This document shows, in pieces, positions 1 through 1,820 of a stretch of DNA of 25,373 nucleotides; position 1 is the first letter of the stretch, and every line of letters starts with the position of its first letter. The translations under genes were made by a program, and so were the position numbers. Source of the stretch: Escherichia coli (lineage in GTDB: Bacteria; Pseudomonadota; Gammaproteobacteria; Enterobacterales; Enterobacteriaceae). Under the pieces are notes generated by a model, which saw nothing but the letters and a program-made list of their open reading frames with translations, had not been told where the DNA came from and did no database searches. Location of the stretch: assembly GCF_003334765.1 (NCBI RefSeq), contig NZ_QOWT01000045.1. One strand, given 5' to 3'.

Positions 1-75
1 TTATCGTGAGAGTAATTCATCGGCACGTTAAATCATATCAGGCGTAATACCACAACCCTTAAGTTAGCGCTTATG
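1..75. mobile_element. Terminal segment of an IS186-like insertion sequence; the element continues beyond the window start
   Basis: Reverse complement of 53..75 reads CATAAGCGCTAACTTAAGGGTTG, which I recognise from memory as the IS186 terminal inverted repeat. It lies 21 bp past the hokE stop, the arrangement I recall for K-12. Transposase ORF is outside the window. Confidence 0.5.
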
Positions 76-96
76 GGATTACTCCCCGCACAACGG

Positions 97-249
97 CTAC
101 TTCTTCGGTTCGTAAGCGAGAACAGCCTTAAACTCAATATTACGTTCCTTCACCGTAAACTCACACAGCGAGTCTCCGACCAGAAGCGTAAATCCCAGCA
201 CCGTTAAACACAGCACTATGACTGCCGCAAGGGCATATTTCGTCAGCAT
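97..249 (-). CDS. hokE: Hok-family type I toxin, 50 aa small membrane peptide
   Basis: Internal Met of ORF 97..348 gives [50 protein letters not shown], recognised as HokE. ATG at 247..249 (minus) is preceded by GGAGG with 10-nt spacing. Confidence 0.85.
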
Positions 250-292
250 GTTTATATTGCCTCCATGCGAAGAAGGGACTACCATCCAAATT

Positions 293-352
293 GTTCGGGT
301 TTGGAGTGGCAGCCCCAGGGTTGATAGAAATATCTCCTGGGGCTTCATCTTT
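293..352 (+). ncRNA. sokE: Putative Sok-type antisense RNA antitoxin for hokE (boundaries approximate)
   Basis: Plus-strand promoter-like -35 TTGCCT (257..262), 17-bp spacer, -10 TACCAT (280..285). A 7-bp stem CCCCAGG/CCTGGGG (313..319 with 336..342) is followed by a U-rich tail (343..352). The transcript would be antisense to the hok mRNA leader including the GAGG/ATG at 346..361. Confidence 0.45.
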
Positions 353-692
353 CCAGACCTCAGAGTAAACCTGAAACCGGAAAGCTTCAGGCACCCGCCG
401 TTATCTTACCCTTCCTCAACAAAATAGCTGTTTATTTATACAGTGAGTCCTGTTTCGGACTTCTCACTCCTCATTTAATCAACTGAAGCTGAACCCGTTT
501 TTTTCTGCATGACTCAATCGTCAAAATTCTTCGCCACCAGTCAGCACTGCCATAACTTGTCACATTGCAAAAGTAGCCAAATTGCTTCAGGCACCATCAG
601 TTCACCATCACCAAAAAAAAGAAACATTCCAGAACTTCCGCATCTCGCCCAGCCGCTCCGACTTCTATACTGAATAGAAAACGCCAACATAA

Positions 693-1820
<1,128 letters not shown>

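Follow-up and report, generated by a model that had tools for sequence, protein, structure and literature searches.

Neither upstream reading frame of the Escherichia coli hokE leader is likely to be a conserved, family-type mok

[quoted passage not shown] The R1 mok frame has the SD GAGG (G105/A106) and an AUG at positions 116-118, the hok AUG lying at 174-176, and mutations of the mok start codon or SD, as well as premature stops in mok upstream of hok, abolish Hok (PMC9841398). The role of the anti-SD (ucb) was also defined in R1 (PMC9841398), and chromosomal hok loci are expected by reviews to obey the R1 rules (PMC5668327). Prediction of Mok coding sequences yields several possibilities in three frames (bioRxiv 10.1101/2025.08.07.668861).

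A common arrangement was found in hokB, hokC, the R1-type plasmid allele and the hokE-like locus of Klebsiella pneumoniae, each of which has GAGG, a spacing of 7 to 8 nt and ATG. The ATG lies in the 3' arm of the anti-SD/SD hairpin, 51 to 58 nt before hok. The annotated 5' ends of SokB and SokC fall 10 and 8 nt inside mok, respectively. In the K-12 annotation, mokC shares the frame of hokC and mokA that of hokA; mokB and R1 mok are out of frame, and mok of the R1-type allele (L039) is in frame. The reading frame relative to hok is no part of the family mok rule, and an in-frame mok, as one candidate in an earlier note on this DNA would be, is acceptable.

The tisB/istR-1 and dinQ/agrB systems belong to unrelated toxin and RNA families, and their translation is controlled by standby sites rather than by a leader ORF. 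They resemble hokE, which is listed alongside them, in that the toxin transcript is under LexA control, the primary mRNA is inert and an antisense RNA is present (PMC8406316). In contrast to hokE, the antitoxin of tisB is encoded divergently and not in cis (PMC4147584).

We analyzed a window of 25,373 nucleotides (the whole stretch of DNA under study, from E. coli contig NZ_QOWT01000045.1). The region of interest at its beginning belongs to an already known type I toxin-antitoxin locus, hokE/sokE, of which it forms the 5' leader, in E. coli K-12 DNA. Positions 1 to 700 showed 100% identity to E. coli K-12 derivatives, and the K-12 RefSeq annotation mapped to the window comprised ybdK, sokE (b4835), hokE (b4415) and IS186B, with no mokE in the hokE/sokE region. 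The Rfam model RF01794 (sok/hok leader) matched positions 396 to 241 on the minus strand with 84.4 bits (gathering score, 59), and the 5' end of the hok mRNA was placed at about position 396 because the match begins there. Pfam HOK_GEF (PF01848) covered residues 38 to 79 of the 83-amino-acid (aa) form listed below (E = 4e-07), and the NCBIfam Hok models covered residues 34 to 83. RF01794, the K-12 annotation and Pfam thus agree with the earlier note that this is a hokE leader, and the two upstream ORFs reported in it were recovered in the ORF listing with the same coordinates, lengths and frames. The hokE/sokE locus has long been known and annotated in K-12, and the ORF findings are a modest detail of it; what is added here is the rejection of a GTG-initiated frame, the haplotype dependence of the 83-aa HokE and the lack of the family mok start in hokE. 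The hokE transcript is SOS-induced, and whether the toxin is made has been called unclear (PMC1891008). The features of the region, with their positions in the window, are as follows.

1..78: end of IS186, inserted in the 3' hairpin of the hokE mRNA (K-12 annotation of IS186B)
97..249, minus strand: hokE coding sequence, 50 aa plus stop (ORF and translation; hokE in K-12 and other RefSeq genomes)
97..348, minus strand: 83-aa ORF with ATG at mRNA position +49, in frame with hokE in K-12 (ORF listing)
161..394, minus strand: 77-aa ORF with a GTG start at mRNA position +3, out of frame, ending inside hokE (ORF listing)
257..285, plus strand: putative SokE promoter, TTGCCT (257..262), 17 nt, TACCAT (280..285) (sequence; position relative to the annotated SokE 5' end)
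260..264, minus strand: hokE's own SD, GGAGG, 10 nt 5' of its ATG (sequence)
275..282, minus strand: dcb, GUAGUCCC, partner of the canonical SD in the processed mRNA (covariation; processed fold)
283..285, minus strand: third candidate start, ATG at +112, coinciding with the Sok -10 box on the other strand (ORF listing)
293..352, plus strand: SokE antisense RNA, 60 nt (K-12 b4835 mapped to the window)
303..316, minus strand: homologous mok initiation position (alignment with hokB, hokC, the R1-type allele and Klebsiella hokE-like loci)
336..343, minus strand: anti-SD (ucb), GCCCCAGG, forming a hairpin with 319..312 (-19.6 kcal/mol)
349..384, minus strand: conserved hairpin from +13 to +48 within the 5' tac stem-loop, holding GAGG (-15.6 kcal/mol; in the RF01794 consensus structure)
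358..361, minus strand: GAGG, 9 nt (357..349) 5' of ATG 348..346 (sequence)
385..396, minus strand: tac element, GGGUGCCUGAAG, at the hokE mRNA 5' end (start of the RF01794 match)
403..443, minus strand: hokE promoter region with LexA box CTGTATAAATAAACAG (443..428) and -10 element TAAGAT (408..403) (sequence)

The LexA box upstream of hokE is conserved in the alignment, and the putative SokE promoter matches 8 of 12 consensus positions. A consensus promoter/terminator scan of positions 1 to 750 returned nothing; its threshold was too high for the hokE and sokE promoters, which were therefore placed by homology and annotation. SokE is predicted to fold (-24.6 kcal/mol) into a single-stranded 5' tail and a terminator-like hairpin with a U-rich tail. 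An Rfam match to mir-1990 was a chance hit on this Sok terminator hairpin (E = 0.46; 18 bits versus 63).

The RNA elements of the hok/sok model are present in the hokE leader. RF01794 and covariation, which was read from an alignment of 23 leaders (alignment A1), together identify a tac stem-loop, an anti-SD/SD hairpin and a target hairpin. Like R1, hokE has the 5' tac, the anti-SD/SD hairpin, dcb, the Sok target hairpin and a cis-antisense Sok, and in K-12 it also has an upstream ORF overlapping hok. All of the RNA-switch elements around the mok site (anti-SD, SD, dcb and Sok target hairpin) are retained. Compensatory changes in the tac hairpin (+13 to +48) occur at A1 columns 15/64, 18/61, 19/60 and 25/54. 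For the pairing of dcb with the canonical SD, columns 103-110 pair with columns 137-144, and the 104/143 pair is A-U in 14 sequences and G-C in 8, which is a compensatory change. The substitution of GGGG for GAGG in the canonical SD thereby covaries with a U-to-C change in dcb, and because it is compensated in this way, the switch structure appears to be maintained. In the predicted folds of an intact allele, tac pairs with the 3' fbi when the mRNA is full length and with GCCCC once it is processed.

The window itself carries a disrupted version of this leader's 3' partner. IS-free strains part from the window sequence at about position 75 and carry GCGGGGAGCAATCCCCGC followed by AGGCACC; in the predicted full-length fold of such an IS-free allele (L002), GGGUGCCU pairs with AGGCACC. 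The long-range pairing between the 5' tac and the 3' fbi is absent in the window, where IS186 (1..78) replaces fbi and part of the 3' hairpin. The K-12 allele is therefore no natural test case, since IS186 took out fbi and cut the 3' hairpin.

At the position homologous to mok initiation, hokE reads GGGGCUGCCACUCC, that is, GGGG (316..313), CUGCCAC and UCC (305..303). Across the 20 Escherichia loci read, this canonical site never carries a start codon (ATG, GTG or TTG). The SD position in the 3' arm of the anti-SD/SD hairpin is kept, but it is occupied by GGGG, not GAGG, and the equivalent change in R1, A106G, is a loss-of-function mutation with no Hok synthesis (PMC9841398). The SokE 5' end (293) lies 12 nt 3' of the homologous mok site, a distance comparable to that in the other loci. 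Whereas the R1 AUG lies 7 nt after GAGG in the anti-SD/SD 3' arm and 58 nt before the hok AUG (PMC9841398), hokE has GGGG without a start, and its candidate ATG is situated 43 nt further upstream, in the tac stem-loop. From these alignments, the family mok start codon appears to have been lost from hokE. Coupling of Hok translation to mok, which the earlier note took as normal, holds for R1 (PMC9841398). The SD-like GGGG without a start codon at 316..303 had been overlooked in the earlier note. Two near-cognate codons near the canonical site, CUG 312..310 (which abuts GGGG) and AUU at +106, were ruled out by their spacing. The possibility that the change from GAGG to GGGG removed an in-frame TGA for the ORF from ATG +49 was also discarded, since inspection showed that it does not do so in either haplotype.

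A scan of 100,044 species genomes recovered 21 to 22 hokE-clade loci. The canonical ATG is kept only in K. pneumoniae, K. oxytoca, K. michiganensis and Pluralibacter (21 hokE-clade loci), where the ORF from this site is 67 aa long and in frame in the three Klebsiella species and 11 aa long in Pluralibacter. The hokE-like loci of these three Klebsiella species encode toxins 76 to 82% identical to HokE and have leaders that can be aligned throughout, but they differ in having GAGG, 7 nt and ATG with the 67-aa in-frame mok, and in lacking both the LexA box and ATG +49. Every clade locus with an upstream LexA box is without the canonical ATG. The anti-SD/SD hairpin of E. coli (-19.6 kcal/mol) is 7.6 kcal/mol stronger than that of K. 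pneumoniae (-12.0 kcal/mol), a gain in stability brought by the A-to-G change in the SD. A start near +49 occurs in 3 of 6 lineages that lost the canonical ATG and in 0 of 2 that kept it, a sample too small to test.

The toxin gene is under constraint throughout the clade. Its coding sequence is unbroken in all loci read. The dN/dS value is 0.12 when E. coli is compared with E. albertii and lies at 0.10 to 0.26 across the clade, including comparisons among lineages without the canonical mok ATG. Because the hokE coding sequence is under purifying selection, the toxin is probably still expressed and translated somewhere in nature. The hokE SD is GGAGG in all 21 hokE-clade loci, unlike hokC, hokB and the R1-type allele, which have AAGGAG at another placement. 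When an intact allele is folded as 3'-processed mRNA, the predicted probability that this SD is unpaired, P(unpaired), is 0.71.

Given these observations, it is most likely, judging from sequence comparison, that neither upstream frame is a conserved, family-type mok. We lean toward the explanation that there is no mokE, that HokE synthesis starts from the gene's own GGAGG once the leader has opened, and that SokE acts through duplex formation. In the hokE clade with a LexA box, HokE would be translated directly from this GGAGG after the leader refolds, and SokE would repress through a 60-bp duplex leading to decay or to a block of refolding, rather than by blocking a mok start. Several points weigh against this explanation. 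The R1 rule is that hok needs mok (PMC9841398), and the same is expected of chromosomal loci (PMC5668327). The GGGG is of the R1 loss-of-function type and the anti-SD/SD hairpin is stronger in E. coli, so that the Escherichia locus may be poorly translatable. How accessible the hok SD and AUG are predicted to be, whether the mRNA is processed or full length, did not clearly separate loci with and without the canonical mok ATG, and this measure was for that reason left unused as evidence. Literature searches for ribosome-profiling or toeprint data on hokE, or on mokE, found nothing usable, and, as the earlier note cautioned for its two frames, sequence cannot by itself prove which start, if any, serves.

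More tentatively, the same pattern may extend beyond E. coli. The LexA-box clade (Escherichia, some Citrobacter, K. spallanzanii, K. indica and Phytobacter) may have lost the canonical mok start while keeping selection on hok and the RNA switch, with toxin translation either independent of mok or driven from a start relocated into the tac stem-loop, which would be ATG +49 in Escherichia and GTG in Phytobacter and Enterobacter. If so, control in this clade would rest on SOS transcription and SokE, not on mok coupling. Should the reading without any mok be true, the textbook rule that hok needs mok would fail for the SOS-controlled chromosomal branch, and the question of whether HokE is ever made, raised in PMC1891008, would be affected.

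ATG 348..346 (+49) is the only start in the hokE leader that is preceded by an SD, GAGG(T), at a spacing of 8 to 9 nt. As had been noted before, it lies inside the Sok-complementary segment (sokE, 293..352, plus strand): it is situated under the SokE 3' tail, and its GAGG (358..361) is outside SokE complementarity. Sok could block this start because the ATG is within the complementarity. The GAGG is predicted to be almost fully paired (P[unpaired], 0.03 to 0.09) in the full-length, processed and K-12 folds; the ATG itself is predicted to be unpaired (P = 0.89 to 0.98), in a 4-nt linker between the -15.6 and -19.6 kcal/mol hairpins. The ATG and the 16 nt upstream of it are invariant in 20 of 20 Escherichia loci read, an invariance that would be equally explained by tac-stem structure. 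Citrobacter, Klebsiella and Pluralibacter lack this ATG. The nearest non-Escherichia relatives retain GAGGTCTGGAAAG, but AAG replaces ATG, as in Citrobacter HRGM and C. amalonaticus, where GAGG is kept; others have ACA or ACG. In Phytobacter and in an Enterobacter metagenome-assembled genome (MAG) this column holds GTG, preceded in the latter by AGGAGG 7 nt upstream.

Among E. coli strains, the ORF from ATG +49 varies in length through loop indels. A C insertion in the Sok-terminator loop (about position 334) and a 1-nt deletion in the loop of the target hairpin (about position 297), single-base indels that vary freely among the strains, yield 83 aa, 62 aa in the +1 frame or 22 aa; a further haplotype has 17 aa. 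In 55 genomes, taken as an even-step sample of full-length hits among 5,410 records, the net length change was 0 in 24, +1 in 25 and -1 in 6. The 62-aa ORF shares its TGA stop with the 77-aa GTG ORF. The 22-aa ORF stops at a TAG 29 nt before the hok ATG, and the 17-aa haplotype stops 45 nt before it; no haplotype seen ends more than 45 nt ahead of the hok ATG, and most run to within 29 nt of it. The 83-aa ORF of K-12 and the 62-aa ORF of +1 strains extend into the hok start region, which the 22- and 17-aa haplotypes do not reach. Because of these indels, the two alternative frames are in effect the same ATG read in different strains. The 83-aa extended HokE is reported by gene callers on at least 1,000 contigs; even so, comparison among strains indicates that it is a haplotype accident, one of several outcomes, and no selected or conserved product.

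Chance expectations were estimated by shuffling the 147-nt leader 5,000 times with its dinucleotides preserved. Of the shuffled leaders, 26% had an upstream ATG whose frame was open and in phase with hok, 3.7% had an in-frame ATG preceded, within about 10 nt, by an SD-like 4-mer, 9.4% had any ATG ORF that was led by an SD and extended to the hok start region, and 0.6% had an out-of-frame ORF of at least 77 aa. Both ORFs are therefore nontrivial in a single sequence, and conservation must decide between the readings. It had been proposed that one of the two frames serves as mok and that maintenance of neither across hokE loci would refute it; the conservation check was run, and neither frame is kept in relatives. 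ATG 346 is off the family position, confined to Escherichia and variable in frame, with a buried SD, and the GTG at +3 lies in tac. In position, comparison and structure, ATG 346 fails as a family-type mok.

ATG 348..346 could still be a relocated, lineage-specific mok that, with the canonical start gone, brings ribosomes toward the place of hok initiation and whose start is blocked by the 3' end of SokE, with translation alone mattering and the frame being irrelevant. We regard this as unlikely, although several of the observations above point to it: the SD at 8 to 9 nt, the position of the ATG inside the annotated SokE complementarity, its predicted unpaired state, the invariance of ATG and SD region in the 20 Escherichia loci and the low frequency among shuffles of an SD-led ATG ORF reaching hok. 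In addition, no stop triplet occurs in any frame from +51 to +115 in the K-12-type leader, and frames vary among accepted mok cases too. The invariance of ATG +49 within the SokE complementarity and the GTG at the same column in Phytobacter and the Enterobacter MAG favor such a relocation and also weigh against direct translation from GGAGG, as does the closeness to hok that the ORF attains in every haplotype seen. The SD, however, is buried in a covarying -15.6 kcal/mol hairpin in every predicted mRNA form, the ATG is placed directly ahead of the -19.6 kcal/mol hairpin, the nearest non-Escherichia relatives keep GAGG without the ATG, and the invariance fits tac-stem structure equally well. 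About 11% of sampled E. coli, including O157:H7, stop 29 nt before the hok ATG and one haplotype stops 45 nt before it, whereas in R1 Hok is no longer made when mok carries a premature stop upstream of hok (PMC9841398).

In E. coli K-12, mokC/hokC and mokA/hokA encode in-frame, N-terminally extended Hok (with shared stop coordinates), as the 83-aa ORF would. However, mokC has the canonical GAGG, 8 nt and ATG, starts 57 nt ahead of hokC and has the SokC 5' end overlapping it, whereas the hokE ATG is 99 nt upstream of hok and beneath the SokE 3' end. The frame of mokB is out of frame and ends inside hok, like the 77-aa ORF and the 62-aa ORF of C-insertion strains; unlike them, it has the canonical GAGG, 7 nt and ATG, whereas the hokE GTG is at +3 without an SD.

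In a further reading, the Escherichia hokE locus is a translationally silent relic, with the mok start gone, the SD/anti-SD hairpin locked and the upstream frames immaterial. The missing canonical start, the match of GGGG to the R1 A106G loss-of-function change, the hairpin strength (-19.6 versus -12.0 kcal/mol in K. pneumoniae) and the IS186 and IS150 insertions found at the locus in some strains are consistent with it. Yet the coding sequence is intact in all loci read, with the low dN/dS values given above (0.12 between E. coli and E. albertii; 0.10 to 0.26 clade-wide), GGGG is compensated in dcb, indicating a maintained switch, and 4,954 of 5,426 E. coli genomes keep at least 80% of the hokE leader segment. 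A silent relic is thus distinctly unlikely.

A third in-frame ATG, 285..283 (+112), had been overlooked in the earlier note. This start is ATG in 19 of 21 clade loci, and in 18 of the 21 its ORF extends to the hok start; K. spallanzanii and K. indica have ATA here. The ORF is in frame and 62 aa long in Escherichia; in Citrobacter and Klebsiella it is a 12-codon upstream ORF whose end overlaps the hok start (ATGCTGA). It would be a working leader start if it used the canonical GGGG or GAGG SD, brought near by the Sok-target hairpin, a proposal that we consider very improbable. Besides its conservation, the proposal draws on the position of the ATG, 8 nt 3' of the SokE 5' end, such that the Sok duplex would cover its approach, and on gene predictors, which call the 62-aa form on 235 contigs. 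Against it, the conservation is explained by the Sok -10 box (TACCAT/TAACAT) on the opposite strand, no SD is present at normal spacing, the ATG is paired in the target hairpin stem (predicted P[unpaired], 0.04 in the processed fold), and 12 open codons would be expected by chance about half of the time.

The GTG of the 77-aa ORF (394..392) occupies positions +3 to +5, within the invariant tac GGGUGC. The nearest purine run ends 13 nt upstream, leaving no usable SD, and the codon is outside SokE complementarity, in line with the poor SD and outside position originally described for it. In 13 of 14 non-Escherichia loci the corresponding ORF is only 5 to 33 aa long, in a variable frame relative to hok, and even within E. 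coli its frame shifts with the loop indels. The 77-aa product had no exact match among about 15 billion public predicted proteins, and NCBIfam held no family for it or for an antisense 69-aa ORF. That this ORF is mokE, near-leaderless and overlapping hokE as R1 mok overlaps hok, has a practically negligible probability: it is out of frame and stops inside hok, like R1 mok and mokB, and an out-of-frame ORF of that length is rare in shuffles, but the predicted folds pair its first bases with fbi or ucb, and the comparison with other genera already effectively refutes it. The GTG ORF is rejected as mok because it starts at +3 in tac with no room for a ribosome-binding site and is short in other genera; it is a by-product of ORF calling, and mokE should not be annotated from either frame absent experimental evidence. 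The long open frame 3' of +62 is the one read from ATG +49 in the C-insertion strains.

The canonical mok ATG was missing at every locus where the LexA box overlapping the hokE promoter was kept, i.e., in Escherichia, Citrobacter HRGM, C. amalonaticus, K. spallanzanii, K. indica, and Phytobacter. In the window, this box is perfect.

Window 428..443, minus strand: LexA box CTGTATAAATAAACAG, overlapping the hokE promoter.

Downstream of it, the canonical SD and its dcb partner covary. In the alignment of hok leaders, the change of the SD from GAGG to GGGG (window 313..316, minus strand) was accompanied by a change of the dcb base from U to C (275..282, minus strand), the two bases forming one pair (alignment columns 104 and 143). 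The stability of the anti-SD/SD hairpin in E. coli exceeds that in K. pneumoniae by 7.6 kcal/mol.

The 83-aa reading frame in frame with hokE (window 97..348, minus strand) varies among strains through two loop indels. The E. whittamii leader (L010) carries the +1 loop insertion together with the -1 loop deletion, and the in-frame 83-aa ORF is thereby restored; none of the E. coli loci read combines the two. The restoration could be a coincidence or could reflect weak selection on the frame. In public gene predictions, the product is named HokE or Hok/Gef family protein and is given in its 83-aa form on at least 1,000 contigs and in its 62-aa form on 235; because both forms are called, the start-site annotation of hokE is inconsistent between databases. 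The frame of mok also flips among near-identical plasmid loci, as seen in the following locus.

L039 (plasmid locus) 234..560: R1-type plasmid hok, encoding a Hok identical to that of R1.

Here, mok (71 aa) is in frame with hok at an offset of 57 nt, whereas the offset in R1 is 58 nt.

The majority of E. coli genomes carry, in their PGAP annotation, a "hypothetical protein" that spans the hokE leader on the opposite strand.

Window 218..427, plus strand: PGAP "hypothetical protein" (approximately 270 nt), antisense to the hokE leader; also at compared loci L001, L002, and L028 to L037.

This ORF, which had no family match in NCBIfam, is probably spurious. It is frequently flagged for a frameshift or internal stop, apparently owing to the same loop indels that alter the leader frame.

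Two insertion sequences interrupt hokE loci.

Window 1..78: IS186 end, inserted in the GGGG-N6-CCCC 3' hairpin of hokE mRNA.
L043 (locus of strain YPE12) 1..1700: IS150 within the hokE leader, with its breakpoint near window position 321, directly upstream of CCCTGGGGC.

Intact hokE alleles read GCGGGGAGCAATCCCCGC at the IS186 insertion point, and the insertion removed from the window hokE the fbi element AGGCACC, the pairing partner of the 5' end. IS186 is likewise present in K-12 hokC, at the same relative position. L043 contains the downstream IS186 in addition to the leader IS150, and in 4 of the 60 sampled genomes the match was confined to the region downstream of the IS150 breakpoint.
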